Origin: Escherichia phage outra
Sequence record: MN850645.1
Strand: one strand, 5' to 3'
Length of the DNA: 64,000 nt
Both the position numbers and the translations under genes were made by a program. The notes below the pieces were generated by a model that was given only the letters and a program-made list of their open reading frames with translations, searched no databases and had not been told where the DNA came from. Shown piece after piece: positions 8,000-63,968 of this stretch; within the stretch, counting starts at the first letter, position 1, and every line of letters begins with the position of its first letter.

Positions 8000-8596
8000 T
8001 TACTCGAACCAATCGTCGCCAGCGCCAAACGCTTTAACTACATCATAAATGTCAAGTCCAGCTTTACCTACACCATATGCTTTCAGTTTCCATTCGCTAT
8101 CTTCCCGCACCAGGGAGGCAACGTGGCAAATGGTATTACCTGCAAGTTCTGGAGCCAAGAAGTCAAAATCCAGCAGTTCAACGTTACGTTCATCATCGAA
8201 GATTTTAAGGAAACCTTCGGTAGCGTGACCAAGGCGTTTCTTACCCGTTTCGTCATCAATAGTGATTACGAATGCAATTTCCTGTGCTTCAGCAGAGATA
8301 TTATCCAGTGTAACATCAATCTGCTCCATTTGTCCTACACCGTCACGAACATCTTCACCTGCAAAAGTAGAACGTTCAGGATCAAATTTCTGTGCGTAGC
8401 ATACCAGGTGGCGAGGAGACAACAGTTCCGGCAGACCAGATGCATTGTGTCGGCAAATCAGAGCACTAACATCCAGATCCAGTTTTTCGTTAGATTTCCA
8501 AGAGAATTCCAGACGAATGCGTTTCAGTGCTGGTGCAATCTTTTTCAGAGAAACTTTTTCGCTAGAACCTTTTTTCAGGGAAATTTTCTGAGTCAT
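8000..8596 (-). CDS. terD: TerD-family protein
   Basis: 198 aa; KISLKKG...VSLKK N-terminus, DLDVSAL, GEDVRDG, EIAFVITI, EWKLKAYG match TerD architecture; AAGGAG RBS. Confidence 0.8.
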   Translation of the reverse strand: MTQKISLKKGSSEKVSLKKIAPALKRIRLEFSWKSNEKLDLDVSALICRHNASGLPELLSPRHLVCYAQKFDPERSTFAGEDVRDGVGQMEQIDVTLDNISAEAQEIAFVITIDDETGKKRLGHATEGFLKIFDDERNVELLDFDFLAPELAGNTICHVASLVREDSEWKLKAYGVGKAGLDIYDVVKAFGAGDDWFE

Positions 8597-8668
8597 AATT
8601 TATTATCTCCTTTGTTGTTAATTTACGTTGTCTATTTTACTAATCTTTTCTACAAAGTCAAGCGTTTT

Positions 8669-9463
8669 TTACGCTTTTGCTCCAAATTTTTTAACCCACT
8701 CGCCAAACTCTTCGGATAGCAGTTTATCGTAAAGTTCTTCGTCAGACAAGGACAAATCTGCAATACCGATAAAATCAACGTTATCGTATTCTTTTGCCAA
8801 GTCTTTCAGGAATTTAAAGTTTGCATTACCTACACCAACCATAAACCAGTAAACAGGAGTGTTGCGGTGTTTGTTCAGCAAACTACGTACTGCTGAAGTA
8901 TCCATGTTCTCCCCGTCAGTTTGGAAGAAAATCATTGCAGGAGTACGATCAACTTGTGCATCAGTATCTACAACCTGTTCTACAACAGTACGTGTAACTT
9001 CTACACGTTCTTTTTTACCAGTTAGTTTAGCAAGGAAACCCTTAGCCGGAACTTCTTCATACTCAACGACTTCGCGTGTAATATTTTTCATAGGTACACT
9101 ACCGAAGTATGTATCATAGATCTCTTGCATTACTGGAGCATAAGCTGTACCACCATTGATGCAAACATTAGACATACAAGAGCCGACATAATCATCATAT
9201 ACATCAGCCGTTGCAGGAGGCAGTTCAAAAGAAGAACTATTGAAAGCCCACATGTCAATCTGTGCATTATCATCAAACTTCATACCAAACGGCAGTAGCT
9301 TACCTACAAAATCACTAACAGTGCCATCACGATACAGCTCACACATACTACCCGAAATATCTAAGGCGCTACCGACACGAAGAACAACATCGTTAATCTT
9401 TTTCTTACGCAGAGATACGGTAAGAGTTTCTTGACGTTTTTTAAGACTGATTTTATTGGACAT
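8669..9463 (-). CDS. vWA-domain protein with TerD-like N-terminal motif (TerY-like)
   Basis: 264 aa; N-terminal KISLKK, DISGSM (DxSxS MIDAS), FFQTDGEN; GGAG RBS. Confidence 0.55.
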   Translation of the reverse strand: MSNKISLKKRQETLTVSLRKKKINDVVLRVGSALDISGSMCELYRDGTVSDFVGKLLPFGMKFDDNAQIDMWAFNSSSFELPPATADVYDDYVGSCMSNVCINGGTAYAPVMQEIYDTYFGSVPMKNITREVVEYEEVPAKGFLAKLTGKKERVEVTRTVVEQVVDTDAQVDRTPAMIFFQTDGENMDTSAVRSLLNKHRNTPVYWFMVGVGNANFKFLKDLAKEYDNVDFIGIADLSLSDEELYDKLLSEEFGEWVKKFGAKA

Positions 9464-9464
9464 A

Positions 9465-9734
9465 TTATTTCTCCTTTCTGAGTGTAATGTTAGTAACTTC
9501 TAAATCCACTTCTACCATTTCTGTATCATACGAAATACAGCTAAGTTGACCTCTTTGCGAACCGTTCAGACACATTGCTTGGTTTGTATTAACTTTAATA
9601 AACACTAAGTTTCTGAACGTATCTAAACCAGAATCTTGATAGGCAACATAATATACAAATGTATCACCTACGTCAAGTTCTCCAAAACATTTAGGTTCAT
9701 CTGATTTGTCGTCTTTGATATTAAATTTAAGCAC
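9465..9734 (-). CDS. hypothetical protein
   Basis: 89-aa ORF. Confidence 0.4.
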   Translation of the reverse strand: MLKFNIKDDKSDEPKCFGELDVGDTFVYYVAYQDSGLDTFRNLVFIKVNTNQAMCLNGSQRGQLSCISYDTEMVEVDLEVTNITLRKEK

Positions 9735-10290
9735 TATCTCCTCCTTTACCTACTTTCCAACCTAAATAGAAAGCCTCTCTAGTGATTTTTTGCAACTCGT
9801 TTAAAGAGATAGTTACAACTAAATCATCTTCAATTTCTAGCTTTGAGTCTTCTTCTGTCTCAATGCAAGTATTATGCACTTTGTGGTAAGGATTGTCAAC
9901 ACGTTTAAATTTATTATTTTCAGTGTTGAAGAAGCAATCTGGATCTTCTTCTCCATCACCCCAACCCTGGTTAGGATCTTCTTCAGATCTTTCTGTTGGG
10001 ATCTCACCTGTAAAGTGCTCTTCTAATACCAGAGCAATCCCATCTCCAAGATCGGAAGAGAACATCAAATTACAAACTTCTTCCCAAGGCATAGACCACT
10101 TAAATCTTTTACGATTGCCATGTTTATCTTCTTCGTTAGAGAAAACACTACCATAGCTATCATAATTCCCATACATCTCTTCGACAACCTTACCACCTTT
10201 CAAAAGAAATAGGTAGCAAGGAGAGCCATCAAAAGAGGTAGAAAGAGCAGCATTACCAGACTCTTTGCACAAGAAACTAAAACACCCCAT
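9727..10290 (-). CDS. hypothetical acidic protein
   Basis: 187-aa ORF; C-terminal ELQKITREAFYLGWK motif also present in 10290..10490. Confidence 0.45.
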   Translation of the reverse strand: MGCFSFLCKESGNAALSTSFDGSPCYLFLLKGGKVVEEMYGNYDSYGSVFSNEEDKHGNRKRFKWSMPWEEVCNLMFSSDLGDGIALVLEEHFTGEIPTERSEEDPNQGWGDGEEDPDCFFNTENNKFKRVDNPYHKVHNTCIETEEDSKLEIEDDLVVTISLNELQKITREAFYLGWKVGKGGDSA

Positions 10291-10490
10291 TATACACCAG
10301 CCTTAAGATCAATTAAAGCCAAAGTTGTTTCAGAGTGTGTTTGCTCGTCTACAGGTGCAGTCATATGATAATACAAAAAATCTTCGGCATCATACCAATC
10401 TGATTCTTGACCTTGTTTCCAACCATCAATGAAAGCATCTTCCATAATGGTTTGCAATTCTTCACGAGTTAAGTGAATATCTTTACTCAT
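10290..10490 (-). CDS. hypothetical protein
   Basis: 66-aa ORF. Confidence 0.4.
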   Translation of the reverse strand: MSKDIHLTREELQTIMEDAFIDGWKQGQESDWYDAEDFLYYHMTAPVDEQTHSETTLALIDLKAGV

Positions 10491-10723
10491 TACACATTCT
10501 CCTCTTTTACCAATTCCATCGTTGAATTGTCAAAACCATCTTTAGAAGAATAGGTATAGACAGAACGTAGTTCTCGCAGGACAGTGAATACATTAGGATC
10601 ATCTAACCAAGCATCCTGGAGGAGAACATAACGATCTTCATTATCATACTGAACAGCAATCATAGAACCAGACAGTTTGTAAATTTTAATATTCATAATA
10701 TATTTCTCCTTAAAGTAGACCAC
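10490..10723 (-). CDS. hypothetical protein
   Basis: 77-aa ORF. Confidence 0.4.
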   Translation of the reverse strand: MVYFKEKYIMNIKIYKLSGSMIAVQYDNEDRYVLLQDAWLDDPNVFTVLRELRSVYTYSSKDGFDNSTMELVKEENV

Positions 10724-11813
10724 GTTTAACAGTTTGAATCATACCATCTTCAAGAGATTGCACTTCTTGAATGTAATCAATACGAGCAGCACGGGCTTCA
10801 GTGTTGATTCGGTTAGTTTCTTCCAACATTTTAACCAAGTTTTCTTGATCACGACGTAATGTTTCAATATCCAATACTTGACGATTAGCAAGTTGTGTAG
10901 CTTCAATTTGGTTTTGTGCAGCCAAATCACTACCCATTGCAATCGCAGCATTAAATTCATTTAGTACATTGTTCTGTGTATCGGCTGCTTTCTTCTGGCG
11001 TAGACTTTCAATATACATAGAAAAGTTTGCAGAGTAAGCAGGGATAACATTATTCACAATATTACGGGCTGATCGCATCAAACTTGCAGATACTTTCTGC
11101 ATACTTTGTACACGTGGCCCCATCTGAACACATAGTAAGCGTAAGGCTTTCAGGTCTGCAATACGAATTTCAAGCAGATCCATAGTATCACGAGTACGTT
11201 GACGCTCTTCTACCTCATTTTCAGGCAGTGTATTAAGGCGAATTTCTTCTTTTTCATAAGTAGCTGTTAGAAGCTCTATATCCCTGTTTAAACTAAGGGC
11301 ATATTTTGCAATAGCCTCTTCTAAACGTTGCAGATATCGTAAAGAATCTTCTTCTTTTTTCAAGTCTGTTTGGAGTGTCTTTACCAAACCTTCAATACGG
11401 TTATTGATGGTGTCAAATTCTCCAAACAAATCTTCTTTCATACCTAAAACTTTCTTAACTAGTTTACCTAAACCTTTAGATTGTTTAATAGAGTTAGGAT
11501 CAAGTTGCTTTGCTTGCTTAATAAGCGCAGTTAAACGTTCACTCATTTCATCTCCCTGAGATGAACGCTGGTGTTTAAGCACTTCAGCATTAAGGTTACG
11601 AAGAGTAAGTCCTGCATCAGCACCAACCTGTTCAATCTCTTCACGAGACATTGGAGGCAGCATTTGTACAGGTCGTGCAACAGCAGGGGCATATACAGGA
11701 CTTGCATCCATAGCAGTTGGAGCAAACAAAGACTTACTTTTTTCTGTTGTTGCCGTGAATACACTCATTTCAGACGGTTTGCTTTTTACGGCACTGATAA
11801 AAGGACTGGACAT
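10710..11813 (-). CDS. TelA-like (toxic anion resistance family) coiled-coil protein
   Basis: 367 aa, size and long coiled-coil profile fit TelA/KlaB; position inside ter-like cluster; GGAGG RBS. Confidence 0.45.
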   Translation of the reverse strand: MSSPFISAVKSKPSEMSVFTATTEKSKSLFAPTAMDASPVYAPAVARPVQMLPPMSREEIEQVGADAGLTLRNLNAEVLKHQRSSQGDEMSERLTALIKQAKQLDPNSIKQSKGLGKLVKKVLGMKEDLFGEFDTINNRIEGLVKTLQTDLKKEEDSLRYLQRLEEAIAKYALSLNRDIELLTATYEKEEIRLNTLPENEVEERQRTRDTMDLLEIRIADLKALRLLCVQMGPRVQSMQKVSASLMRSARNIVNNVIPAYSANFSMYIESLRQKKAADTQNNVLNEFNAAIAMGSDLAAQNQIEATQLANRQVLDIETLRRDQENLVKMLEETNRINTEARAARIDYIQEVQSLEDGMIQTVKRGLL

Positions 11814-11881
11814 TCAATTTCCTCCATATTCTTTAGTAGATGGTGATACTTCTATACCACCATCATAACACAAGTTAAGTA

Positions 11882-12733
11882 TTAAACAAACATATCTAAA
11901 TAATTTGTAGTAATAAATGCTCCATCTGCTTCCAGATTAACATAACCCGTGGTATTAGCAGTTAAGAAATCCAGATCGAAGGACTCTTTAACACCCCGTA
12001 CCTCAACACGAGAGATATCGAATACAGGTAGTGTAACAGCCTCTTCGTGCAATACCGTACCTTTGTAGGTTGCCTTAATGATAAACTTGATATTACCCGT
12101 TCCAGCATCATACAAAACACTTTCAAACCCTTTGAGAGTATATTTATCACCAGAAGTGAAGTGCAAAGTTGCTTTGTTTACAGTACGTTTTTTACGAGGA
12201 GTTCCTTTCACACGTTTATGATCACTACGTTTTTTGTATTTAGGAATGAATACAAACGATACACTCTCAAGAAAGGTATCAACATCAAGGATTTTAATAT
12301 CCTCTGTTGCAGCAAATTTTGAAGTCGTTGCATCAAAATGCTTTTCCCTGCGATCATACATAAAGATATCAAACCGATCTTCTAAATCAAACAAATTATG
12401 TATTTTAATTTCAGAATGCTTGCGCATTGCAGCAACCTTGAACTCTTCAAAACGTGGGTGTTCTACAAGTTCTTCAAGTTTTACACCAAAGACAGTATAT
12501 TGCTTCGAAGTCTTTTCTGGTGTTGGCATTACAGAAGCATAATCACCGATTGCGCTCTTAAAGCAAAATTGTTCTTGACCTGTATTTTTACCAACGAATT
12601 TACAGTATTCGTCATTGTGCATACTTTCCTTGGTAGTACCAACAAACTCAAAACCATCTTTATTCTTCTCAAGAATTTCTTGATTAAAGATCCAACCTTC
12701 CAGGCGATACACTTTACCAACTTCTAGTTTCAT
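11882..12733 (-). CDS. hypothetical protein
   Basis: 283-aa ORF. Confidence 0.45.
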   Translation of the reverse strand: MKLEVGKVYRLEGWIFNQEILEKNKDGFEFVGTTKESMHNDEYCKFVGKNTGQEQFCFKSAIGDYASVMPTPEKTSKQYTVFGVKLEELVEHPRFEEFKVAAMRKHSEIKIHNLFDLEDRFDIFMYDRREKHFDATTSKFAATEDIKILDVDTFLESVSFVFIPKYKKRSDHKRVKGTPRKKRTVNKATLHFTSGDKYTLKGFESVLYDAGTGNIKFIIKATYKGTVLHEEAVTLPVFDISRVEVRGVKESFDLDFLTANTTGYVNLEADGAFITTNYLDMFV

Positions 12734-12768
12734 CTGTTTCTCCTTCTTATTTAATCTGTATTAAATTA

Positions 12769-13374
12769 TTAACGACGACGTGAGCTACTAAAACTACGTT
12801 TCGACGAAGAATAACTTTTCGAAGACTTACTATAAGAGCTAATAGGACTTGAGTAAGACTTACGAGCAGAGTAATCACTATTCACTTTTGTTGTTGATGG
12901 GCGTGAATACGTTTGTACACTTTGCTGCTTAATTGTGTTTTGTTTAGTGGTTGTATATGTATTCCCTTGTTTATCATAAAACCTATGCTTTTGTGTTGTA
13001 TATGCTTTACTATTAGTTGTAGGAGCAGCGTTGTTATTGATAATTGTTGTATTGCTACCGCCATCTCTATAACCACCACCGCCACTATTACCACTCAACA
13101 TATGACCAAGAAGCATACCTGTAGCAAACTCACCTACGCCAGAAGAACCACTGCCGCCTCCTTGCACAACAACTGTTGAAGGTTGTGCAGGTGCTGCTTG
13201 AACAACTTGAGGTGCAGGCTGATTTACATATTGTTCATCTACCATCTGATTTGGTGTTTGTTGGTAACGTTGATTTTGTACATTTTCAGAATCATCACAA
13301 CCTACCAGCAATGCACTACCTAAAACAACTGCAACAATAAAAGATTTAATGTTTTTCATTTGTAACCCTCTCAT
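12769..13374 (-). CDS. lipoprotein with Gly-rich and S/Y/K-rich low-complexity C-terminus
   Basis: Signal peptide plus lipobox LLVGC; GGGSGSSG and SYSSPISSYSKSSKSYSSS tracts. Confidence 0.55.
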   Translation of the reverse strand: MRGLQMKNIKSFIVAVVLGSALLVGCDDSENVQNQRYQQTPNQMVDEQYVNQPAPQVVQAAPAQPSTVVVQGGGSGSSGVGEFATGMLLGHMLSGNSGGGGYRDGGSNTTIINNNAAPTTNSKAYTTQKHRFYDKQGNTYTTTKQNTIKQQSVQTYSRPSTTKVNSDYSARKSYSSPISSYSKSSKSYSSSKRSFSSSRRR

Positions 13375-13567
13375 TTAAAATCTCAACACAATTTTTAAAA
13401 TCCCTAGAGAAACAATACATCTGTTCTCCGTTCCTGTTGATAGTAATTGTATGGTTATCAATATATGTTGTCAAGATAAAAATCAAACAAAACAAACCTA
13501 GAGCAAAACAAATATTTTCAAACAGAATCCAAAGAACACGTAAAACCACCATCAGATCACCTCAATA

Positions 13568-13585
13568 AAGCCCCCGAAGGGGCTT
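13568..13585 (-). terminator. hairpin downstream of terC
   Basis: aagcccccgaaggggctt. Confidence 0.5.
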
Positions 13586-13591
13586 AATGAA

Positions 13592-14569
13592 TTAAGCAAC
13601 AGCCTGGTCTTCTTTTTCAGGGAAGATTAAACTTGCAAGAACACCCAGCCCAAGAGTACCTAACACAATATACATACTGATCGTCGGGTCAATGTGTGCT
13701 GGCAGGAAACTCACTTTTGCGTGCAGAGTTTCTGCAAACGGGTGATACATCAGTTTTACACCCACAAACACCAGGACTACGATAACTGCTTTCTCCAGAT
13801 GAACCAAATACTTCAGTGCAACACTAAGAACAAAGAACAGAGCACGTAAACCTAAGATTGCACAGAGCATCGAAGAGAACACCAGCAGAGGTTCTTGTGT
13901 CACTGCAATTACTGCTGGAACAGAGTCTACTGCAAAGATTACGTCAACCATTTCCATTACAAACACACAAACCAGAGCCGGAGTTGCTACACGAACACCA
14001 TTTTTGATTGTGAAGAACTTCTCACCATCCATCTGATCAGATACAGGGAACAGCTTACGAACAATGCGAGTAGCCCAGTGTTTAGAGTAATCAACTTCTG
14101 CATCATTATCTCCAGCGAATACCATTTTAGCCGCACAGAAAAGGATGACAGCACCGAAGAAGATATTAACATACCAGCCCAAACTCAACAAGTAAGTACC
14201 TACTGCTACAAACACACCTCGGAAGACAATCGCACCTGCAATACCCCAAAGTAGAATCTTGTGCTGCAAGTGTGTGCTTTTAATACCAAAACTTGCGAAT
14301 ACTGCTACAAATACTACTAAGTTATCTACAGAAAGAGATTTCTCCAACACATACCCACTCAAGAACAAGCTCGCAAAATCAGCACCGTGTTGGAAGTATA
14401 CAAAACCATAGTAGGCTAATGATACCCCAATCCAGAAAATTGACCAGCCAATTGCAGATTTAAATGAAATTTCTTTGTTTTCTCTGTGTCCAAAGAAGTC
14501 AATACAAATCGACAAGACTAAAATACCCACTAAAACAACCACATCAATAATTGGGAAACCCAGTTGCAT
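13592..14569 (-). CDS. terC: TerC-family integral membrane protein
   Basis: 325 aa, multiple TM segments, EKSLSVDNL hallmark; GAGGAG RBS. Confidence 0.8.
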   Translation of the reverse strand: MQLGFPIIDVVVLVGILVLSICIDFFGHRENKEISFKSAIGWSIFWIGVSLAYYGFVYFQHGADFASLFLSGYVLEKSLSVDNLVVFVAVFASFGIKSTHLQHKILLWGIAGAIVFRGVFVAVGTYLLSLGWYVNIFFGAVILFCAAKMVFAGDNDAEVDYSKHWATRIVRKLFPVSDQMDGEKFFTIKNGVRVATPALVCVFVMEMVDVIFAVDSVPAVIAVTQEPLLVFSSMLCAILGLRALFFVLSVALKYLVHLEKAVIVVLVFVGVKLMYHPFAETLHAKVSFLPAHIDPTISMYIVLGTLGLGVLASLIFPEKEDQAVA

Positions 14570-14646
14570 TCTTTTCTCCTCTTTAATGCGGAGGACAATC
14601 CTCCGCTCTATGTCTTATACTATAAACTGTTTTTAAAGAAAGTCAA

Positions 14647-14895
14647 CTAGTTCAGTTCTGTAATTTTAAGTTTATCTTCTTTGTTAATGACAGGGAAAGC
14701 TACAGCATCACCTACGTCATCAATAAAGCAAATAGCAAGACCACCTTCCACTTTGCTGATTTGACCATTAAAGGCGTGATACGGGGCAGGAACTTGATCT
14801 CCATCTTCAAGGAGAATAGCCTCGTAAACCTTGCCGATAGTACAATCACGAGTGTTTCTAAATTTTTCAAGCACTTCAACATTTACTTTACGCAT
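14647..14895 (-). CDS. hypothetical protein
   Basis: 82-aa ORF. Confidence 0.4.
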   Translation of the reverse strand: MRKVNVEVLEKFRNTRDCTIGKVYEAILLEDGDQVPAPYHAFNGQISKVEGGLAICFIDDVGDAVAFPVINKEDKLKITELN

Positions 14896-14909
14896 ATAAA
14901 AATCCTCTC

Positions 14910-15116
14910 TTATTTGTTAGATTGAAAGATACCACGAAGTACCGCAAGAATGAACGTCACACAGACTACACTCCAAAACGTTACAGGAACATGATGCCAG
15001 TCTAAGCCGATAATGTCAATCATATAGTTGTATGCTAAAAGCAGTAGCCAACTAGGGATTAACACAATCAAAAACACAACAATAAAACAACCTAATACTG
15101 CTAAAACACCTGCCAT
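14910..15116 (-). CDS. small membrane protein
   Basis: 68 aa, two hydrophobic segments. Confidence 0.4.
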   Translation of the reverse strand: MAGVLAVLGCFIVVFLIVLIPSWLLLLAYNYMIDIIGLDWHHVPVTFWSVVCVTFILAVLRGIFQSNK

Positions 15117-15125
15117 ACTTTCTCC

Positions 15126-15842
15126 TTATTTCAGTTTGTAAACAATTACATTTAAACCTTTGTTTACTAGAGTTTCTTCGATCATAAGTTTTACAATACT
15201 CCAAGAACCTCCAGCCAAACCACAACCAAGCATTGGTAAACCTACAATTTTACCGCCTGAAGATACAACATCGTCTCCCATACTATCTAACGCATTGTAG
15301 ATAGCTTCATAATTCAGGTCACGCTTACCTTCCTCACGACGACTATAACCATATTGTCCATATAAATTATAAATTGTCAAATTGTTTTCTATATATTTGG
15401 TAAACGTACCTAATTTTTTATAATCACCATGTTTAGTGGCACAATCTGCTTTAAACGCACCAGGCCACTTGCTTTTAATTTTTGGTGCAATACCACTACC
15501 CATAGTGCAAAAACAGTTACAGCAGTGTGCTATAGCGTCTATATCGCCTCTCTCGGCTGCTGCTAAAAGATCACCGTATACCTCAATGATACCTGCCGGA
15601 TAACTTGTTACAATTTCATCTTCCCAATACATTTTCTCTACACCACCGATCAGTGCAAAGTTTTGTGTAATGCGATCATCAATATAGTTAAGACCTGAAA
15701 CATACACAGCATATTCATCCTGTGCTGTAATACCTTGTACACGAATTCTTAAGACACCATCTTTATCTGTTGCTACACGCCCAAAATCTTTTTCTGTAAT
15801 ATTGGTGATAGGATCTCCGAAAGTCATTACTTTATTAGACAT
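15126..15842 (-). CDS. macro-domain protein (ADP-ribose binding/processing) with unknown N-terminal extension
   Basis: IAHCCNCFCTMGSGIA and GLPMLGCGLAGG resemble macro-domain glycine-rich loops; start placed at Met just after upstream stop. Confidence 0.55.
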   Translation of the reverse strand: MSNKVMTFGDPITNITEKDFGRVATDKDGVLRIRVQGITAQDEYAVYVSGLNYIDDRITQNFALIGGVEKMYWEDEIVTSYPAGIIEVYGDLLAAAERGDIDAIAHCCNCFCTMGSGIAPKIKSKWPGAFKADCATKHGDYKKLGTFTKYIENNLTIYNLYGQYGYSRREEGKRDLNYEAIYNALDSMGDDVVSSGGKIVGLPMLGCGLAGGSWSIVKLMIEETLVNKGLNVIVYKLK

Positions 15843-16692
15843 AATAATCCCCTTTAACATTAGATTTGTTGATAATGTTGCTTTCAAAAAATTGACGTAG
15901 GAAATCAAAGTTCTCTTTATATTTTTCAATGTTATTGTAGCCTTCTGCAAGGCAACCAAAGAACAGTTGTTCTACATAATACAAAGGAAGCTGTGAAAGT
16001 GCAATTTTAAAATCAACTTCGCTTTGACTCATTAGATACTTAATAGGACGAACCAAACATTTAGCATCAGTTTCTTGTTTAATCATTTTAATAAAAGCTG
16101 CCAGGTTATTGATATAGTTGAAGTTAAGTGCAGCTTCGGTATTGGCTTCTGTACCTTCATACTTTGCAAAGTACAGGAAAAACGTATCGTTTTCAACACC
16201 TTCTTTGTCTAAAATTTCAATAAGTTTTTCTTCGTGCGTTCCTGTAATATTAACATCATCAATGAAAATCAGAGTTTTATTACCCCAGAAATCACGATTG
16301 ATAGAGAAAGTGTCACCATCGATCAAAGCCTTACGATCTTCTTTGCTAAGAAATCCATAATCATTGATATAGCTCACTTTACGATGAACGATATCCCACT
16401 CCACTGCTTTACCTCCTTTGATAGAGATTAGGTAGTTGAGGTGATCTACAAAATGTTCAGATAACACTGTAGCTGCATTTTTCACATAGTTATATGGAGA
16501 TGGAATAACAACAAAACTTTCATTTACCAGTCGTTCTTCATACTTGGAAAAGAAACTTTCAGCCAGAATGCGCCCCATTCTTTTTGCTGCCTGGTTACTA
16601 CCAAACTTTAGCTTGGAATAATCTGCAATGTTAAATTTTGCTTCCTTCAGGTTAGTAAAAGTATTAGCAAAATGTTGAATTTGATTACGCAT
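15835..16692 (-). CDS. phosphoribosyltransferase (PRTase type I)-like protein
   Basis: 285 aa; TLIFIDDVNITGTH resembles the PRPP-binding motif. Confidence 0.5.
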   Translation of the reverse strand: MRNQIQHFANTFTNLKEAKFNIADYSKLKFGSNQAAKRMGRILAESFFSKYEERLVNESFVVIPSPYNYVKNAATVLSEHFVDHLNYLISIKGGKAVEWDIVHRKVSYINDYGFLSKEDRKALIDGDTFSINRDFWGNKTLIFIDDVNITGTHEEKLIEILDKEGVENDTFFLYFAKYEGTEANTEAALNFNYINNLAAFIKMIKQETDAKCLVRPIKYLMSQSEVDFKIALSQLPLYYVEQLFFGCLAEGYNNIEKYKENFDFLRQFFESNIINKSNVKGDYYV

Positions 16693-17341
16693 TAATAAGT
16701 TCCTCTTTTTTAAGTTTAGCCAACAAGTCTTCTGGATTAATAATATGACAGAACTTCATCCCTATGTCAACAGCTTTTCCATCATAGATCAAACTATCTC
16801 CAACGTGTAAGATCTCCTCTGGTGCGAGATCAAACGTTACCATTTCATCAAAAGAGAGTTTAAAAAACCTAGGATCTGGTTTACACAAGCAAAACTCGTC
16901 AGAAAAATGCATAAAGTCGAATGGTAATTTTGTCAAGCCAGAATATACAGCTAAAAAACTACCAGGTACAAAATTAGTATTGCTTTTAATACTCAAAGAA
17001 TAGGTTGAACTTAGCTCTTCCAACTTCTTGCAAAGTTCAGGGTTTAATGTTGGAGGATGTTTTATAAACATTGCTAAACAGTCTCTTTTTAACCCATCTA
17101 CTTTATCAAGATCAATGTTCAAACGAGCAGAAAGTGTTTCCCAAGCATTTCTAGATGTTCCACAAATGCCTTTTTCTGCTTTTAAATCCAGGAGAGTTTT
17201 TACCTCTTTATATACGGTAGCTGCTTCTACCTCAGAACAAGAGGCATACTCGGCAATAACCTTGTTGCGTTCTTCTGCATACAAAGGATTAGCAGTAATA
17301 AGAGTATTCCATACATCAAAAGAAATATGCTTAACAGTCAT
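16685..17341 (-). CDS. HAD-superfamily hydrolase-like protein
   Basis: ISFDVWNTL (motif I-like) and HVGDSLIYDGKAVDIG (motif IV-like); start at Met with GGAGG RBS. Confidence 0.5.
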   Translation of the reverse strand: MTVKHISFDVWNTLITANPLYAEERNKVIAEYASCSEVEAATVYKEVKTLLDLKAEKGICGTSRNAWETLSARLNIDLDKVDGLKRDCLAMFIKHPPTLNPELCKKLEELSSTYSLSIKSNTNFVPGSFLAVYSGLTKLPFDFMHFSDEFCLCKPDPRFFKLSFDEMVTFDLAPEEILHVGDSLIYDGKAVDIGMKFCHIINPEDLLAKLKKEELINA

Positions 17342-17510
17342 TTTTAATCCTCCGTCCAAAAGAATATCATCTGCTTAATTTTATTGATCTCTTGATGTAG
17401 TAACTTTCCAGCATGTGATTGATCTTTAATATTGACAGCAAGAATTTCAAGTTCCGTTAGTTTTTCTTGGATAGCTTTATATTCATCATCTGTAAGCATT
17501 TTCTTCCCCT

Positions 17511-34618: not shown

Positions 34619-34650
34619 AAAAACCCGCTCCGGCGGGTTTTCTTGTATTG
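34619..34650 (+). terminator. Rho-independent terminator
   Basis: aaacccgctccggcgggttt hairpin followed by a T-tract. Confidence 0.7.
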
Positions 34651-34678: not shown

Positions 34679-35851
34679 ATGACAGCACCAAAATCATGGG
34701 AACAATATAAAGAAGAATTAACACCCCTTGCTAAAAATCGCAATATTCAAATCCTGGGTTATGTTGGTGAATGGAAAGGGAACAAGACTAAACTTAAGCT
34801 ATCTTGCCCTAAACATGGAGAGTGGAACACCACGAACATTAATGATTTTAAGAAGGGACGTGGTTGTCCTATCTGTTCTGGTAAGAAGCCGTTAACATGG
34901 GAAACAGAATTGCCGATCTTGGAAGAGATAGCACAGAAGAGGGGGTATCAGGTGTTAGGGTACGTGGGAGAATGGAAAGGGAATAAAACAAAACTTGATT
35001 TGTTGTGTCATTGTGGTAATAAATGGGATACTACAAGTATTAACAATTTTAAACGTGGTAGCGGTTGTCCACAATGTAAGAGGGAGAGACAAACAATGTC
35101 CGACGATCAACATATTGCAGATTTCTTTTCTACAGGGGAATTTAAGGAAGGCACTATCTTCACCAATACAGGGAAACGTAACAAGCGTGATGCAGTATGG
35201 ATGGTTGAGTGTCCTGTTTGCTCCCATGATGAATATGTTCAAGCAGGTGTTTGTGATGGTAAATTTTACTCTGCAGGACATAACCTTAAACAAGGGTATA
35301 TTCCGTGTCGTTGTGGGAACTATCAGTATACAGAAGACCAGATCACCTATAGGGTAAAAAAGGAAGTAGAAGGGAAAGGGTATGTCTGGGTAGATTGGAT
35401 TACCAAACCCTCTTCTATAGGTAAGTTTAAATATCTTTGTCTTGTGCATGGTGAGCAGATAGGGAGTGCTCGTAATTTATTAAGCCTCGGTCAAGGTTGT
35501 CCACAGTGTGCTGGTCATAATCAACAGCAATTATATATTAATATTGTTAAAGATAATGATATTATAGTTGCTCTTAAGTTTGGTATATCTAAAGATAGCG
35601 ATAGACGATTAAACGGTCAAAATAGCCGTAATCTGTTTTTTATGGGGCGTATTTGTTTATATGATTTTAGCACAGTGAAACAATGTAGGGCTGCTGAAAG
35701 AGCTATAAAGAAAAAATTAAAAACTGGTATTTTAACGGCAAGAGAGTTGAAAGATGGTTATACAGAAACAGTAAGTGTTTCTGATTTGGAAAATCTTCAA
35801 AAAATTATTACACAATATGGTGGCAAATTAGTATACAGTAAGGAGATGTAA
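34679..35851 (+). CDS. homing-endonuclease-like protein (tandem Zn-ribbon repeats plus C-terminal T5orf172/GIY-YIG-like domain)
   Basis: Two repeats LGYVGEWKGNKTKL...C..G..W.TT.IN.FK.G.GCP.C and a third CPQCAG unit; C-terminal YINIVKDNDIIVALKFGISKDSDRR; GAGGAG RBS. Confidence 0.5.
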   Translation: MTAPKSWEQYKEELTPLAKNRNIQILGYVGEWKGNKTKLKLSCPKHGEWNTTNINDFKKGRGCPICSGKKPLTWETELPILEEIAQKRGYQVLGYVGEWKGNKTKLDLLCHCGNKWDTTSINNFKRGSGCPQCKRERQTMSDDQHIADFFSTGEFKEGTIFTNTGKRNKRDAVWMVECPVCSHDEYVQAGVCDGKFYSAGHNLKQGYIPCRCGNYQYTEDQITYRVKKEVEGKGYVWVDWITKPSSIGKFKYLCLVHGEQIGSARNLLSLGQGCPQCAGHNQQQLYINIVKDNDIIVALKFGISKDSDRRLNGQNSRNLFFMGRICLYDFSTVKQCRAAERAIKKKLKTGILTARELKDGYTETVSVSDLENLQKIITQYGGKLVYSKEM

Positions 35852-36403
35852 ATGCGGATTACTGATAAGTATGTGTTCTTCTTCTCGGCAAAAGATGAAT
35901 TTAGCAACTGGTATCTATCATCTTTTATTGAACCTTTAGCTCCCAAGTATAATAATTCTATTACAAGTTCTGTTGAATTTACTTGTGTGGAACAATATAT
36001 GATGTGGAGAAAAGCATGTTTGTTTTATGATTACAACATTGCATCTTCTATTTTAACCGGAGATCTAAGATATACAGGAGAAAAAGAACAGGCATATTAT
36101 AAGCGACTAGGTAGATTAGTTAAAGATTACGATGAAGCTACTTGGACTTCTTTACGGGAGAAGATTGTCAAGCGTGGTTTGTATCTTAAATACACACAAA
36201 ATGAAGATCTCAAAAATAAACTTATCGCTTACGCAGATAAGGAGTTCGTAGAGGCAAGCCCTTATGATTCTATTTATGGTATCAAAATGGGAATGTGGGA
36301 TCGTGATGTGGAAAATAAGGACTGTTGGAAAGGACAAAATCTTTTAGGAAAATGGCATACAGACCTTGCTGTTTATCTAAAAGCACAATCTGATATTTCC
36401 TGA
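35852..36403 (+). CDS. NADAR (YbiA-like, DUF1768) family protein
   Basis: 183 aa; FFFSAKDEFSNWYLS...FTCVEQYMMWRKA and GQNLLGKWHTDLAVYL fit NADAR conserved blocks; AAGGAG RBS. Confidence 0.55.
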   Translation: MRITDKYVFFFSAKDEFSNWYLSSFIEPLAPKYNNSITSSVEFTCVEQYMMWRKACLFYDYNIASSILTGDLRYTGEKEQAYYKRLGRLVKDYDEATWTSLREKIVKRGLYLKYTQNEDLKNKLIAYADKEFVEASPYDSIYGIKMGMWDRDVENKDCWKGQNLLGKWHTDLAVYLKAQSDIS

Positions 36404-36599
36404 TATTTTGAAAATTTTTATTTTTATAAAAAGGGGTGTGGGTTTCATGTACGGAAATCCACCCTCTGAATAATATATCCAGAGTAAATATTATTCTGTA
36501 CTCTGTTAATAAAGTATTTAATTTGTTTGTTTGACTATGGTATCTGATCTTTAAAAGGCATACTATCTCTTAACTACTACTTATAACAGAACAGTAAAA

Positions 36600-36840
36600 T
36601 CATTTTTATAAAAAGGACAAAATTATTTAAAGTTTTTACAGATTTTTGGGTACAAATTTTGAAAATGAAAAGTTCAAGTTTGGTCAAAATTATTTAAAGT
36701 TTTTGTACGTATTTCTATCCAGATTTTGAAAATGAAAACTTCAATTTTTTAAAAATTCCCCAGTTTATTTAAAGTTTTTTTGCCTTTTTCCGTAGAAAAA
36801 TCAAAAATGAAAAGTTCAATTTCGTGTTTTTATGGGTGTG
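36600..36840. repeat. tandem direct repeats (about 60-70 bp period, 3-4 copies) in a non-coding region
   Basis: Recurring TTTTGAAAATGAAAAGTTCAA and ATTATTTAAAGTTTTT blocks near 36623, 36658-36698, 36724-36777, 36800-36830. Confidence 0.6.
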
Positions 36841-36841
36841 C

Positions 36842-36955
36842 GTATGATAATCATTTTCATTTGTAAATGAGAATCATTATCATTTAAGTATGTAAGTGAT
36901 AATCATTCTCAGTAAGAGAATGAGAATCATTAGCAAATGAGAATTTTCTCATTTA
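36842..36955. promoter_or_regulatory. cluster of AT-rich dyad operator-like sites (AATGA-n3-TCATT, Fur-box-like)
   Basis: gataatcatt, aatgagaatcattatc, gtgataatcattctc, gaatgagaatcattagc and the perfect palindrome aaatgagaattttctcattt. Confidence 0.45.
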
Positions 36956-37595
36956 GAGAATAACGCGCAGGGGCGGTGTTTGTCTCGCGCTCCCGTGTCC
37001 CCTCGCCATACAATAAGAATAGCATAACCAACAACAAAAGCAAGCGATTATTTTTATCTTTACATTTCTTTACAAATTTATTTTAGACGAGCTACCGGCG
37101 ATCAACCTTCCAACCAGTAGTGCCCTGGTATGTTAGCCCCGCCTTTACGCCGTGGGGGTGGCGCTTCCTCTTCTGTATGTAAAACAGTATAAGCCCGATC
37201 CCTGGGCTTGTCAAGATTATTTTTTGTTTTCTTGCCAGGATAGGACACCTAGCCAAAAATACATGTCGCCCCGCGCCCCTGGCGGGATCTTGCTTTCCCC
37301 GCCGCCACTGCAAGCCCATAGATAACCATTTGCGAACGTATCAAAATGATCTATTTCTTCCACCTTATGATCGCCCAGGTTGAGAACGGTTTCAACCTTT
37401 AAGCCCGTTGCGCTTGCTACCTGGTGCACCGTGCCGCCTTGCCAGCCTAATGAGTGCATGAGGTGTAAAGTAGTATTTGTCATGGTATCGCCCTTTCTTT
37501 GATGTGCGCCCTGGTTGGCGCGGTAGAAAGATAATAGCCCCTTTCCTTTATAGATAGCAAGCAAAAAAGAAATGAAAAAAGATTAAAAAAGGGGT

Positions 37596-37624
37596 TGACG
37601 TTCCTCACCTGGTAGCGTATTATT
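37596..37624 (+). promoter_or_regulatory. sigma70-like promoter (TTGACG-17-TATTAT)
   Basis: Read directly; located in a locally GC-richer island. Confidence 0.45.
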
Positions 37625-37854
37625 CATCTTGTCGAGGGGGGCGAGGCACAACGACAATAAACAAAAGGAGGGCGCAATGCAGGACGGGCAAAGGTGAGGA
37701 TCTCCACAATCCACCGTCACAATAACATTACTTATAAAAGGTTGATAACGATGATCAAGAAAGAAAACAGCTTGACGGTTGGAACGATTAACGCTATCAT
37801 TCTAGCCGTTCCATTTTGGATTGTAGTAGCGGTTATTATCTTTTAAAAATATTC

Positions 37855-37912
37855 TTGACAACGTTTTTTAATCTGATAAGATGTATCACATAGGGCGGCA
37901 ATAGTGCCGCTC
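37855..37912 (+). promoter_or_regulatory. early promoter plus stem-loop cassette (TTGACA, TAAGAT, hairpin GGGCGGCAATAGTGCCGCTC)
   Basis: Module directly precedes the RBS and ATG of 37935..38207. Confidence 0.6.
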
Positions 37913-37934
37913 ATAACAGAAGAGAGAAATAATC

Positions 37935-38207
37935 ATGGCATCATATAGCGCATCAATGATCGTAGCTGGCATCACTGGTAAACCTATGCGCGGTGGCGGA
38001 TCTTTCGCTAACATCAATATTGATGGGCGTTTATCCCTGGATGCAGCGATCACCGTGGCACGGGAAACATTTAAAAAAGAATGTAATTTCAATAAACAAG
38101 ATTATCTCGGCTTCGTTATTGAAAAAACCGCGCGCTTTGTGGATTATAAAAGCCCGAAAATGATCGACACTACACTAAAAGCGCAAGATGTAGCGTTTTT
38201 GCTTTAA
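37935..38207 (+). CDS. hypothetical early protein
   Basis: 90 aa; promoter/stem-loop/RBS module upstream. Confidence 0.5.
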   Translation: MASYSASMIVAGITGKPMRGGGSFANINIDGRLSLDAAITVARETFKKECNFNKQDYLGFVIEKTARFVDYKSPKMIDTTLKAQDVAFLL

Positions 38208-40933: not shown

Positions 40934-41029
40934 AGGAGACATAAAAATGAAACATCGTTCGACCTATCTCACAAAACGTTTTAGCTTAGATCATAAATTG
41001 GGCTATTACGGAAGAAATAGAAAATAATT

Positions 41030-41090
41030 TGACAACGTTTTAAATTAGTGTAAGATATATCACATAGGGCGGGAAATGGTTTCCCGCCAA
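41030..41090 (+). promoter_or_regulatory. early promoter plus stem-loop cassette (hairpin GGGCGGGAAATGGTTTCCCGCC)
   Basis: TTGACA, TAAGAT, hairpin, AAAGAAAGG RBS; near-identical to module at 38211. Confidence 0.65.
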
Positions 41091-41110: not shown

Positions 41111-41338
41111 ATGGCTATCATTATTGTTCGCGTATCCGGTACGGTTGGAAGCTCCCAGGTAGTAGCAGTTATCACCGAGAAGAAAGGGGATGATCTTCAC
41201 TCTTCCTTGAATAGCTGGGCGGTAGCTAACTTCGGGCAATGGTCGAGCGTTGAGTACATCGAATCCTACCAGGTGCCAACGATTAGCCTAACCGATCTAA
41301 ATGTTGATCGCTTGTTGTGCCTGGATGGATTAAACTAA
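41111..41338 (+). CDS. hypothetical early protein
   Basis: 75 aa. Confidence 0.5.
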   Translation: MAIIIVRVSGTVGSSQVVAVITEKKGDDLHSSLNSWAVANFGQWSSVEYIESYQVPTISLTDLNVDRLLCLDGLN

Positions 41339-41346
41339 AAATAATC

Positions 41347-41405
41347 TTGACAAGATAACTAAAATCAGTAAAATGTAATGCATAGGGCGGCAATAGTGCC
41401 GCTCC
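41347..41405 (+). promoter_or_regulatory. early promoter plus stem-loop cassette (hairpin GGGCGGCAATAGTGCCGCTC)
   Basis: TTGACA, TAAAAT, hairpin. Confidence 0.6.
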
Positions 41406-41425
41406 TAGTGAGAGAGATTATCAAA

Positions 41426-44732: not shown

Positions 44733-44790
44733 TTGACACTAGGCAAACAACGTAGTAAAGTTTATCACATAGGGCGGCAATAGTGCCGCT
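44733..44790 (+). promoter_or_regulatory. early promoter plus stem-loop cassette (hairpin GGGCGGCAATAGTGCCGCTC)
   Basis: The stretch from the hairpin to the RBS is almost identical to the module at 37855. Confidence 0.6.
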
Positions 44791-44812
44791 CATAACAGAA
44801 GAGAAACAAATC

Positions 44813-44983
44813 ATGATCCCAACTATGTTTTATGTATCGCGCAAAGGTCACAATATTTTTTGGTCTGAAGATTTAAATGAAGCCATGACGTTTGCCCGTG
44901 ATCGTGTCGCTATCGGTGGCGTTAACATTACCGTAACCGATGAAAATGGCATTGAATACTATAACGGCGACGATGAAGAGTAA
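44813..44983 (+). CDS. hypothetical small protein
   Basis: Start at Met after module. Confidence 0.4.
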   Translation: MIPTMFYVSRKGHNIFWSEDLNEAMTFARDRVAIGGVNITVTDENGIEYYNGDDEE

Positions 44984-47977: not shown

Positions 47978-48052
47978 AAATGATAATCATTCTTATTTAT
48001 AGCTGATTATTTATGCAATAAACTGCATAATGCAATAATGATAATCATTCTT
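47978..48052. promoter_or_regulatory. two Fur-box-like dyads (AATGATAATCATTCTT), 55 bp apart
   Basis: Read directly. Confidence 0.4.
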
Positions 48053-48906
48053 AACTTATGACCATCTAACCTATAAAATAATAAGCTATCTAACTAAATT
48101 AAAACTAATTATCTCACCTTTATTTATAACTTACTGTTACTATCTCATTGATAACCTTATATTAAACAACAATAACTAATATAAATCATTACTAAGCTAA
48201 ATATAATCTATCTAACCTTTAAAACTATAACTATAATCTATCGAATTGTTGCACAAAGTAACTATTAAATTGTTAGTAACATTGCTAAATAATTAATATC
48301 CTATCTATTTATGATCTAATCTTTACCTTCCTATTTATTACCTAAATAACCATTTCATATAGTAATTATTTCATACAATAACTATAACAAGAAACATAAT
48401 TCGCAAGCGTATCATTAGCAGCCTATGCCGGACACATAGGCGGCTAATAATAACGCAACTACACACCCCACATAATAACCATCACCGATAGTTATTATTT
48501 GTGCTTATGTAGCTTGCAACAATTGCAAGCGCAACAATATACTAAGGTATATTGTATCCCTTACATTGTTGCGGTGCGTTATTATTAGCTAATGTTTAGA
48601 ACATTGGCTATAATATAAGCTGCATATAATAAGCTATTCAATAATAAACATCGTGAATAATGACATTGATGATCATAATGCGCCACCCTCCAGGGGGCGC
48701 TATGTGAACACAAAGAAATCTTTCTTATCAAGAAAATATTATCACTATTGCGCAAAATTATTTACATCTGAATAGATGATTTTTCATACTATTATTGTTA
48801 TTTGTTGAGCATAGTTATAGCCTATTTGTTGAGCCTACTTTCTTAAAAGCGCAATAAATCAGAATTATCTTGATTTTTAGTGCGTTTTATAGTATAGAAA
48901 ATATGC

Positions 48907-48923
48907 AAATGATAATCATTATC
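48907..48923. promoter_or_regulatory. near-perfect Fur-box-like site (AAATGATAATCATTATC) just downstream of a TTGATT-N17-TATAGA promoter-like element
   Basis: 15-nt identity with positions 5-19 of the E. coli Fur consensus GATAATGATAATCATTATC. Confidence 0.45.
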
Positions 48924-49480
48924 AGCTATCTTCCACGGGTAGCACTATTTCACGCCAGATCATTTCATTTGGCAAGGTGTATATAGATGTTTAGACTTGC
49001 CAAGTTATTGATTTACTTAGAATTTATCTATTTTGTTGTGAGTAGTACCTTTCTTGCTTAGAAAATAATCAAAAGTCTTATAAGTCATTGAATGATAATA
49101 CAAATGATAATTATTCTCATTGATATTTGAGGGGGACGGTCGGCAGAAATCGGGGGGTGCTGAAAATCGCGTTAAGCACCTCTCGCAAGCGAGCAGTATT
49201 TTGCGGCAAGTTATTGATATTATTGGCTTTACGCTTATGAAAAGGGGGTGTGTCGAAATAAAGCGGGTATACCGGAAAATTTTTGTGGCATAGATATTTA
49301 TTTGTCTATATTATGTACAAAGGGGTGTGTTAAAAATATTAGGTATATATAGAATAATTGATAGGGAAATCCTATACTAATCCCTCCATTAATGATGTTT
49401 CTATGTTACTGTTCTTGTAATAGATGAAAAGACGCTGTATGATGTGTGGCATGAAACGTAAACTTATAAAGGAGTCTGAT

Positions 49481-62139: not shown

Positions 62140-62952
62140 TTACTTAGTCAAATGATCTTCTATCATTTTTATGAAAGCAGGATTGCTAAAAGCCTCTGCT
62201 GCCTTTTCTCTATAAACAAAGACTCCTCTATCTTCGTAAAGAAGAGTTTCTTCGTAATTAATTCCTGGGTTAACAACAATCATTTTTGTACCCATATTAA
62301 GTGCAGGAAATAATTCCCAATTAAAATTGATAACTTGGTTTGAACATCCTACTACAACAACCAAATCTTGCATGGTCAGAGTATCAAACAAGTAAGCCAT
62401 ATCTGCATACAAAGGTGCAGCCTCGCCAAAAAATACAACATTAGGCTTCACCCAGTTATAATCATCTATGTTTATACTATTGTAACCAATGTCTACCAGT
62501 GTTTTGTAATCTCCAGGATGCATACGGTAAACTACTTCAGGAAGATACCCGTGCACGTGAATAACAGAATCCCTGTCCACACCTGCTCGCTCTAGTAGAT
62601 CATCAACGTTTGTTGTCAAGTTTACTACTTGGTTAGGATATTCCTTAAACCACTTTGCTATTTGAATATGTGCAGCATTAGGTTGTACATCTTTAAGCTC
62701 AACACGTCTTTTGTTATAAAATTCGTGTGTTTTGGCATACAAATCCATACCGTTCTCGTCTACACCACCGACCACTGGAAGATCTGGAGATGTTCTAACA
62801 CGATAACCTGCTTGGAAAGCTCCAATATCGCAGACCTCTTCTAAATCATATTCTTCCCATAAGGCACGACCACTATCTGTGTCTGTTCGGAATGTTCGAA
62901 TCCCACTGTCTGCACTTAAACCTGCGCCACTAACAAAAATTACTCTTCGCAT
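62140..62952 (-). CDS. Sir2-family (sirtuin-like) NAD-dependent protein
   Basis: 270 aa; VIFVSGAGLSADSGIRTFR (GAG..SG.P.FR), NLTTNVDDLLERAG, IHVHG, KPNVVFFGE, LVVVVGCS; terminator hairpin downstream at about 62112-62132. Confidence 0.75.
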   Translation of the reverse strand: MRRVIFVSGAGLSADSGIRTFRTDTDSGRALWEEYDLEEVCDIGAFQAGYRVRTSPDLPVVGGVDENGMDLYAKTHEFYNKRRVELKDVQPNAAHIQIAKWFKEYPNQVVNLTTNVDDLLERAGVDRDSVIHVHGYLPEVVYRMHPGDYKTLVDIGYNSINIDDYNWVKPNVVFFGEAAPLYADMAYLFDTLTMQDLVVVVGCSNQVINFNWELFPALNMGTKMIVVNPGINYEETLLYEDRGVFVYREKAAEAFSNPAFIKMIEDHLTK

Positions 62953-63509
62953 TCAATATCCTCTTCGTAATCATCATCCCAAGAAGATGCGTCGTAACGC
63001 TCTTCCTCTTCGAAATCCCAATTAATTTCTACTCCAAAATCTAAAAACAATTTAACAATGTTTTCTGTAGAATAGTATTTATCATAAGCGTTAGCTAGTT
63101 CCCAATACTTGTCACTCAATTTTTTATAAATAGGATCATTATAGTCATAATCTACTTTATAACCATAGTCATACATCTCTTGTTCAGCTTTAAGCATAGC
63201 TTCTGGTGTAAGAAGATTAGGGAACGGACGATTTCTTTCTTTTAACTTAGAAGCGATCCAGTTTGCAACATTCGCCACTTCACCATCTCGATTATCACCT
63301 AAACAACTTGCATAATCTCCATCTTGGTAAGTGCCTAAATCCCCACTAACTTCATGTACAATACTTGAATACGATCCACACGTTTCACAATCTGAAAAAG
63401 TGTCTACTGTTGTAATATCAATAGATAAAACTGGTAAAGCCATAGCTTCTTTCACACAAGCCTCCTCATATAATAACATATCATCAAAACCCATATATCC
63501 TCCACACAA
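62940..63509 (-). CDS. hypothetical acidic protein
   Basis: 189 aa with D/E/Y-rich C-terminus. Confidence 0.45.
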   Translation of the reverse strand: MCGGYMGFDDMLLYEEACVKEAMALPVLSIDITTVDTFSDCETCGSYSSIVHEVSGDLGTYQDGDYASCLGDNRDGEVANVANWIASKLKERNRPFPNLLTPEAMLKAEQEMYDYGYKVDYDYNDPIYKKLSDKYWELANAYDKYYSTENIVKLFLDFGVEINWDFEEEERYDASSWDDDYEEDIECEE

Positions 63510-63548: not shown

Positions 63549-63968
63549 TTATACCAGACTTTTAAGGTACTTGTCAAGGGCTTCTTGATCACCTTGACAA
63601 ACATAGCAACGGAAATCTTGAGCCGAGGGTTCTTTGTCCTCGTCCCAATCCCAATAAACAGTACCTTTATAACGTGAACCTGGGAACTCGAAATATGCTG
63701 TATGAGTGATATGATGTGGGCCACCCCAAAACTGTATAAAAGTAAATTGAGGATATGCTGCTTTAACTGTATTTTCAAACCAAGTTTTACGATCTAATGC
63801 TTCGTTTATAAAATAAGCATGGCGTTCCATTTCATCCCAGTTTTTCCAAACGCATTTTTCATCCAGAGAAAAAACAAAATCTTCACTGTTGAATTCATCT
63901 GTATCTTCCAAAATATCATAATCATGTGCACTAGGTATCCACCATCCAGCTTCTAATAGTGCTTTCAC
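63549..63968 (-). CDS. hypothetical protein
   Basis: 139 aa; terminator hairpin downstream at about 63512-63533. Confidence 0.45.
   Translation of the reverse strand: MKALLEAGWWIPSAHDYDILEDTDEFNSEDFVFSLDEKCVWKNWDEMERHAYFINEALDRKTWFENTVKAAYPQFTFIQFWGGPHHITHTAYFEFPGSRYKGTVYWDWDEDKEPSAQDFRCYVCQGDQEALDKYLKSLV

Follow-up and report, generated by a model that had tools for sequence, protein, structure and literature searches.

A NADAR gene of Escherichia phage outra, probably an orthologue of the anti-DarTG1 gene adfN^Bas60

The 64,000-nucleotide stretch of the genome of Escherichia phage outra analysed here (sequence record MN850645.1; hereafter the window) contains a gene encoding a protein of the NADAR family, which directly follows an open reading frame (ORF) resembling homing endonuclease genes (Table 1). 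We conclude, with a probability of about 0.88, that this gene encodes an orphan antitoxin-like NADAR DNA ADP-ribosylglycohydrolase, orthologous to AdfN^Bas60 of Justusliebigvirus, which reverses the modification introduced into DNA by the toxin DarT1. The finding is a corrected annotation of a function already known from a 2025 paper: the assignment to NADAR is correct, but it is not new, since the activity is in the literature for a protein with 180 of its 183 residues in common.

The 5 kb around the NADAR gene are 99.9% identical to Escherichia phage vB_EcoM_ESCO8 and 94-99% identical to dozens of Justusliebigvirus genomes, including those of the BASEL phages PaulScherrer (Bas60) and JohannJBalmer (Bas62). 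The phage of the window is itself a Justusliebigvirus, a member of the Stephanstirmvirinae, which are rV5/phi92-like myoviruses, and infects E. coli. Searches with tblastn recovered the NADAR protein at 95% identity or more in 55 phage records, and 716 records in all, mostly from large myoviruses, when more distant homologues are included. The window protein is identical at 180 of 183 positions (98%) to bas60_0111 of Bas60 and at 182 of 183 positions to bas62_0106 of Bas62, with equal length and the same synteny. The substitutions relative to the Bas60 protein (N62S, A96D and A178T) all fall outside the invariant or near-invariant columns of an alignment of 81 sequences; we infer that they are neutral.

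The NADAR protein common to Bas60, Bas61 and Bas62 was named AdfN^Bas60 (Johannesman et al., Nat Commun 2025, PMC11825919; preprint PMC11257639); we equated it with bas60_0111 because this is the NADAR annotated in Bas60. AdfN^Bas60 neutralises the DarT1 toxin in E. coli with no phage present, and its ectopic expression brings the DarTG1-sensitive phages RB69, T5 and Bas25 back to full titre on DarTG1 hosts; it gives T5 no help against DarTG2, which modifies thymidine (PMC11825919). A preliminary description of this DNA, made from the sequence alone, had proposed that the NADAR protein acts against ADP-ribosylation-based host defence and had suggested rescue from DarT-type toxins as a test. 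Both the role and the rescue are already on record for the 98%-identical AdfN^Bas60 (PMC11825919). The phage gene is an orphan in the sense that no ADP-ribosyltransferase (ART) was identified next to it, its neighbours being the CapR/T5orf172 ORF upstream and short ORFs downstream; Pfam and PHROG scans of the ORFs at the locus revealed no darT1 or other ART gene that would make it part of a DarG1-type operon.

Membership of the NADAR family was confirmed, far above chance, by three independent profile libraries. The Pfam profile NADAR (PF08719) matched the protein with an E-value of 2.3e-36 and 126 bits (gathering score 35.1) over positions 9-154 of 163, the NCBIfam model TIGR02464 with 109.8 bits (cutoff 73.7), and phrog_1017, whose annotated function in PHROG is unknown, with an E-value of 4e-50. 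The NCBIfam model DS32_2, 'NADAR family anti-phage protein', was rejected for this protein (25.9 bits against a cutoff of 240). The AlphaFold2 model computed from an alignment of 81 homologues is very confident and exhibits the alpha+beta fold of NADAR proteins (predicted local distance difference test 96.4, predicted template modelling score 0.90). The family assignment of the preliminary description is thus sustained by the Pfam search that it had recommended and, at the level of the fold, by profiles, a match in the Protein Data Bank (PDB) and the model.

That PDB match, obtained by a phmmer search of the sequences of solved structures, is the NADAR-ADP-ribose complex of Phytophthora nicotianae (PnNADAR, 8BAU), and functional residues were transferred through the alignment with this protein. 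The PnNADAR residues with assigned roles, E43, K50, K75, R79, E125, D130 and W133 (Schuller et al., PMC11543638), correspond to E47, K54, K84, R88, E134, D139 and Y142 in the window protein, the last being an aromatic residue in place of Trp133. All 81 homologues share E47, K54, K84, E134 and D139, and at least 90% of them have R88. These seven positions are the predicted ADP-ribose-binding and catalytic residues of the window protein.

The position of PnNADAR E125 is occupied by Asp in DarT1-associated antitoxins and by His in T4-type phage NADARs (PMC11543638). Judged by sequence comparison, Glu134 marks the window protein as belonging to the NADAR/YbiA side of the superfamily. With the family profile, PnNADAR reaches 131 bits and YbiA 71 bits, DarG1 not being found at E ≤ 1. 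Both observations agree with the published tree, in which AdfN^Bas60 lies among bacterial NADARs that are neither YbiA nor DarG1 and from which a recruitment independent of T4 AdfN was deduced (PMC11825919). The match to TIGR02464 and the label 'putative YbiA-like N-glycosidase' carried by the Bas60 and Bas62 genes in GenBank are explained by this position on the NADAR/YbiA side. The name is nevertheless misleading, because E. coli YbiA fails against DarT1 in cells and AdfN^Bas60 succeeds.

In the mechanism that we propose, infection of a DarTG1 host would release the DarT1 ADP-ribosyltransferase, which would put ADP-ribose on the guanine N2 amino group in phage DNA and so block replication. 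The NADAR protein would then bind the ADP-ribose moiety and hydrolyse the N-glycosidic bond that links guanine to the distal ribose, and the restoration of unmodified DNA would allow replication to proceed. The predicted contacts of K54, K84 and R88 are the phosphates and those of Y142 and D139 the adenosine side, with E47 and E134 predicted to flank the distal ribose. The protein would work enzymatically and not by binding the toxin, and would require no other phage factor. Hydrolysis of guanine-N2-ADP-ribose by the window protein is implied, through their 98% identity, by the in vivo rescue obtained with AdfN^Bas60; the residue roles, early expression from a co-directional gene cluster and the need for NADAR on DarTG1-positive hosts are what we infer.

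Several points weigh against this interpretation. The experimental support comes from ectopic expression of AdfN^Bas60 and not of this exact sequence, and our literature search found neither a deletion in a native phage nor an in vitro assay of the Bas60-type NADAR clade. Other NADARs, of the YbiA and T4 types, were active in vitro yet gave cells no protection against DarT1 (PMC11125620), so that the NADAR fold alone does not guarantee activity in vivo. The window protein also departs from the DarT1 antitoxins in having Glu instead of Asp (D171 of E. coli C7) and in being devoid of the N-terminal extension, it is structurally nearer to PnNADAR and YbiA than to DarG1, and the name that TIGR02464 would give it is riboflavin-intermediate N-glycosidase.

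The same affinities bear on the possible breadth of its activity. The protein groups with PnNADAR and YbiA, and not with DarG1, by both sequence and structure, and carries Glu134 where Asp or His would be found in the other types. A broader range is absent from DarG1 and the T4-type NADAR (PMC12945103), and this grouping away from both types leads to the prediction that the window protein may have one. It could then be a broad nucleic-acid de-ADP-ribosylase, acting on cytidine and guanosine in DNA and RNA and covering defences beyond DarTG1, a reading that we hold to be rather unlikely; it extends the reversal of DarT1 modification and does not exclude it. Speaking against it, no natural anti-phage system is known to ADP-ribosylate cytidine, and AdfN^Bas60 did not counter the thymidine-modifying DarTG2. 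More speculative still is the proposal that this Glu-type NADAR, in structure a member of the 'NADAR' family proper and not of the DarG1 or T4 types, also strips cytidine- and RNA-linked ADP-ribose, countering defences yet to be described, and that the anti-defence gene spreads between co-infecting phages with the help of homing endonuclease genes. If it were true, a broad NADAR together with the AdfM-like macrodomain described below would provide cover against ADP-ribosylation of several bases.

For the majority of phage NADARs, Iyer et al. (2022, PMC9503650) proposed low-molecular-weight ADP-ribose derivatives as targets, such as immune signals or toxic ADP-ribose metabolites of TIR, Sir2 or ART defences. 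That these small molecules, and not DNA, would be the main targets of the window protein accords with the NMNAT-like, NAMPT and Apyc1-like genes found beside homologues (~42% identity) on jumbo-phage-like contigs, and with the Macro and Sir2 genes of the window genome. We nonetheless consider it quite improbable: the proposal is older than the experiments, no phage NADAR has a demonstrated small-molecule substrate, AdfN^Bas60 neutralises the DNA-modifying DarT1 directly and without phage infection, and the NAD-salvage neighbourhood is not present at the window locus. The least credible reading is that of the Bas60 and Bas62 GenBank records, a YbiA-like housekeeping N-glycosidase for reactive intermediates of riboflavin biosynthesis: E. 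coli YbiA gives cells no protection from DarT1 (PMC11125620), unlike the 98%-identical AdfN^Bas60, which neutralises the toxin and rescues phages, the profile scores (131 against 71 bits) and the tree of Johannesman et al. place the protein away from YbiA, which is not its closest relative among characterised NADARs, no link to riboflavin is apparent (the 34 window ORFs scanned with Pfam include neither a riboflavin-pathway gene nor a RibA/RibD fusion), and policing such intermediates is no evident need of a lytic phage.

The candidate anti-DarTG1 gene is the last of a plus-strand co-directional cluster that starts near 31.7 kb. Its ATG abuts the TAA of the upstream ORF without a gap and its Shine-Dalgarno motif falls within the last codons of that ORF, an arrangement that suggests co-transcription and coupled translation.

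Table 1. Location of the NADAR gene and of other features of the window.
Feature	Coordinates	Strand	Remarks
NADAR gene	35852..36403	+	183 aa; AdfN^Bas60 orthologue (probable); ATG at 35852, stop ends at 36403
Shine-Dalgarno motif AAGGAG	35840..35845	+	6 nt 5' of the NADAR ATG; read from the sequence
Homing-endonuclease-like ORF	34679..35851	+	390 aa; three CapR-homology zinc-ribbon DNA-binding repeats and, as a borderline match, a C-terminal T5orf172-type domain
Terminator-like hairpin	34620..34641	either	AAAACCCGC-TCCG-GCGGGTTTT; between the AAA-ATPase gene and the endonuclease-like ORF; terminator scan
Hairpin without U-tract	36432..36467	+	14 bp, G+C-rich; 29 nt 3' of the NADAR stop
TerD	8000..8596	-	Ter-type cluster
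vWA-TerF-like	8669..9463	-	Ter-type cluster
TelA	10710..11813	-	Ter-type cluster
TerC	13592..14569	-	Ter-type cluster
Macro-domain gene	15126..15842	-	238 aa, of which residues ~85-237 are the macro domain; TARG1/SCO6735-like; homologue of T4 Tk.4 (AdfM)
ComF-like PRTase_3	15835..16692	-	Ter-type cluster
HAD hydrolase	16685..17359	-	Ter-type cluster
Sir2-family gene	62140..62952	-	270 aa; CobB-like; PF02146 E-value 2.5e-22, phrog_2162 E-value 5e-105

The upstream ORF matched the CapR profile PF21817 with 146 bits in three stretches and phrog_681, annotated 'endonuclease', with an E-value of 9e-87; its match to T5orf172 is borderline (19.1 bits, with a gathering score of 20). Vibrio phage ICP1 has homologues of it that carry the annotation of putative homing endonucleases, and the CapR/T5orf172 homing-endonuclease family has been described (Netter et al., 2021; Barth et al., 2023). 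The CapR repeats, phrog_681 and the ICP1 homologues bear out the neighbour of this type that the preliminary description had recognised. Compared with Bas60, the ORF is more variable than the NADAR gene (92% and 97% DNA identity, respectively), and the protein that it encodes is 81% identical. In a survey of relatives that was not systematic, every Stephanstirmvirinae genome inspected has such an ORF at this position, no empty site was seen, and none of the inspected records has NADAR without the endonuclease-like ORF, a configuration that would demonstrate homing.

More distant NADAR loci also contain endonuclease genes. The Phapecoctavirus ESCO13 has two small ORFs between the endonuclease-like gene and NADAR, the Vequintavirinae GAP31 and Mydo encode NADAR in a replication/repair module, directly 5' of an HNH endonuclease gene, and a jumbo-phage-like contig of 455 kb has GIY-YIG genes on both sides of its NADAR homologue, with an NMNAT-like gene before it. 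NADAR genes thus stand beside homing endonuclease genes of three families (T5orf172, HNH and GIY-YIG) in three lineages, an adjacency observed without comparison to a null expectation, which may reflect endonuclease-assisted spread. On jumbo-phage-like metagenomic contigs the homologues directly follow an NMNAT-like (CTP_transf_like) gene, with a NAMPT/NAPRTase gene and an Apyc1-like anti-Pycsar gene nearby, a clustering that suggests anti-defence and NAD-salvage islands. A bacterial context for the nearest homologues on large contigs was rejected; the two contigs examined, of 455 kb and 310 kb, resemble jumbo phages and not bacteria, so no bacterial donor of NADAR was identified.

Downstream of the NADAR gene, about 1.5 kb are without a long plus-strand ORF and contain only short, mostly unannotated ones. 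The terminator scan detected no canonical intrinsic terminator 3' of NADAR, where folding shows a strong hairpin without a U-tract, and the proposal of the preliminary description that the gene closes an operon rests on gene layout for this reason. It is reasonable, given the last position in the co-directional cluster and the ORF-poor stretch that follows, with the terminator unproven. RNA folding of positions 36395-36490 gave -22.6 kcal/mol (z -2.26), and the hairpin is probably either the boundary of the transcript at its 3' end or an element that stabilises it. The other hairpin, also a strong one, upstream of the endonuclease-like ORF, could act on either strand because its stem has an A-run 5' and a T-run 3'; its counterpart in phage Paula is annotated as a terminator on both strands. 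Searches of the whole 64-kb window gave no tRNA and no Rfam family at gathering thresholds, so that the ORF-poor stretch does not correspond to a known RNA.

This stretch has several other features. Just 3' of NADAR, very AT-rich DNA (23-27% GC) contains three ~70-nt direct repeats at 36602-36822, whose copies are 72% identical to one another and for which phages inny and alia have no annotation other than 'repeat_region'; from their sequence, they look iteron-like. They are followed by a GC-rich island at 36950-37700 (46-51% GC against ~37% around it), which contains a small ORF conserved on the minus strand (annotated with 267 nt in relatives; phrog_19316, listed as of unknown function), and a minus-strand sigma-70 promoter close to consensus (37214..37186, 11 of 12 matches) is directed back toward NADAR. 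The near-palindromic, Fur-box-like 15-mer TGATAATCATTnTCA forms two clusters, at 36845-36935 and 47981-49119, both within ORF-poor stretches of about 1.5 kb. If up to two mismatches are allowed, the window has 19 occurrences of it where 1.6 are expected, and the E. coli Fur consensus GATAATGATAATCATTATC with up to three mismatches occurs five times against 0.08 expected; these clusters could be sites for host Fur or serve a regulator of the phage as operators. A comparison of the ORF-poor regions at 36.4-37.9 kb and 47.8-49.4 kb showed no large-scale similarity, the matches being short motifs and promoter modules. A promoter/leader module of ~55-90 nt with TTGACA promoters is repeated at 37844-37937, 41021-41075, 41336-41407 and 44763-44815, where it precedes successive small plus-strand ORFs, as is typical of an early region transcribed by the host RNA polymerase.

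The preliminary description had also listed a macro-domain gene and a Sir2-like gene, and both are present where they were placed. The macro-domain protein matched the Pfam Macro profile with 29 bits (gathering score 22), and its PDB matches include 5E3B (7e-16), TARG1 (4e-10) and, more weakly, the DarG macro domain (3e-3), its best solved relatives being SCO6735, BT1257 and human TARG1. Its macro domain shares 31% identity (E-value 3e-17) with T4 Tk.4, named AdfM and presented as an anti-DarTG2 factor in a 2025 HIDEN-SEQ preprint. By this homology it is plausibly a second anti-DarT factor, and the phage may carry enzymes against both DarTG1 and DarTG2. The gene is enclosed in a minus-strand Ter-type cluster extending from 8000 to 17359; this location among Ter, PRTase and HAD genes suggests another, possibly metabolic role, and the protein may act in a predicted pathway for a nucleoside-like metabolite, instead of or besides anti-defence.

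The Sir2 protein has the E. coli deacylase CobB as its best PDB match (1S5P, 9e-19) and keeps the catalytic histidine of the HG motif; when aligned to CobB it apparently has none of the cysteines of the zinc-binding module. The two minus-strand genes just beyond it, 62940..63509 and 63549..63968, are assigned to PHROGs that have no known function. We found no evidence linking the Sir2 protein to anti-defence or to NAD-depleting systems. Where NADAR, macro and Sir2 proteins had been presented as a set of three that counters ADP-ribosylation-based or NAD-depleting defences, the NADAR part stands, the macro part is plausible through the homology to AdfM, and the part on Sir2 and NAD depletion finds no support. 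That Macro and NADAR occur together in large myoviruses has been documented as a general pattern (Iyer et al., 2022, PMC9503650). Weak glycosyltransferase matches on 2818-3762 (-) and 4735-5421 (-) (Glyco_trans_1_2, 26.8 bits; TET-associated glycosyltransferase, TAGT, 24.1 bits with a gathering score of 27.5) give a faint hint of glycosylation of DNA or other molecules, noteworthy because AdfN^T4, unlike AdfN^Bas60, is reported to need a phage context.

Under the proposed identity with AdfN^Bas60, the genes of ESCO8-like phages now annotated as 'hypothetical protein' or 'YbiA-like N-glycosidase' would become adfN, encoding an anti-DarTG1 DNA ADP-ribosylglycohydrolase. ESCO8-like phage-therapy candidates are then predicted to be insensitive to DarTG1-carrying E. 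coli, and, since NADAR is paired with a macrodomain resembling AdfM, the cover may extend to both DarTG subtypes.

Among the characterised members of the superfamily, E. coli YbiA (2B3W), the N-glycosidase of riboflavin intermediates, differs from the proposed function in its failure to protect against DarT1 in cells (PMC11125620). PnNADAR, which represents the 'NADAR' family proper, is eukaryotic; the window protein has Tyr142 for its Trp133 and a short insertion around residues 28-40. DarG1 (G. lovleyi, 8BAT, and E. coli C7) carries out the same reaction as AdfN and neutralises the same toxin. AdfN^T4 (T4 gp30.3), the founding anti-DarTG1 NADAR of phages, shares the superfamily, the orphan-antitoxin logic and the guanine-ADP-ribose target, but belongs to a different NADAR family, the T4 type having a reported His where the window protein has Glu134 (PMC11543638), and it needs phage infection to neutralise DarT1 whereas AdfN^Bas60 does not (PMC11825919). 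AdfN^Bas60 itself resembles the window protein in length, genus and position after an ATPase gene and a CapR/T5orf172 ORF. The Bas60 version of that ORF has four CapR repeats instead of three. To the NADAR of Bas60/61/62 the window protein is 98-99% identical, and three conservative-looking substitutions, none of them at a conserved position, distinguish it from that of Bas60.
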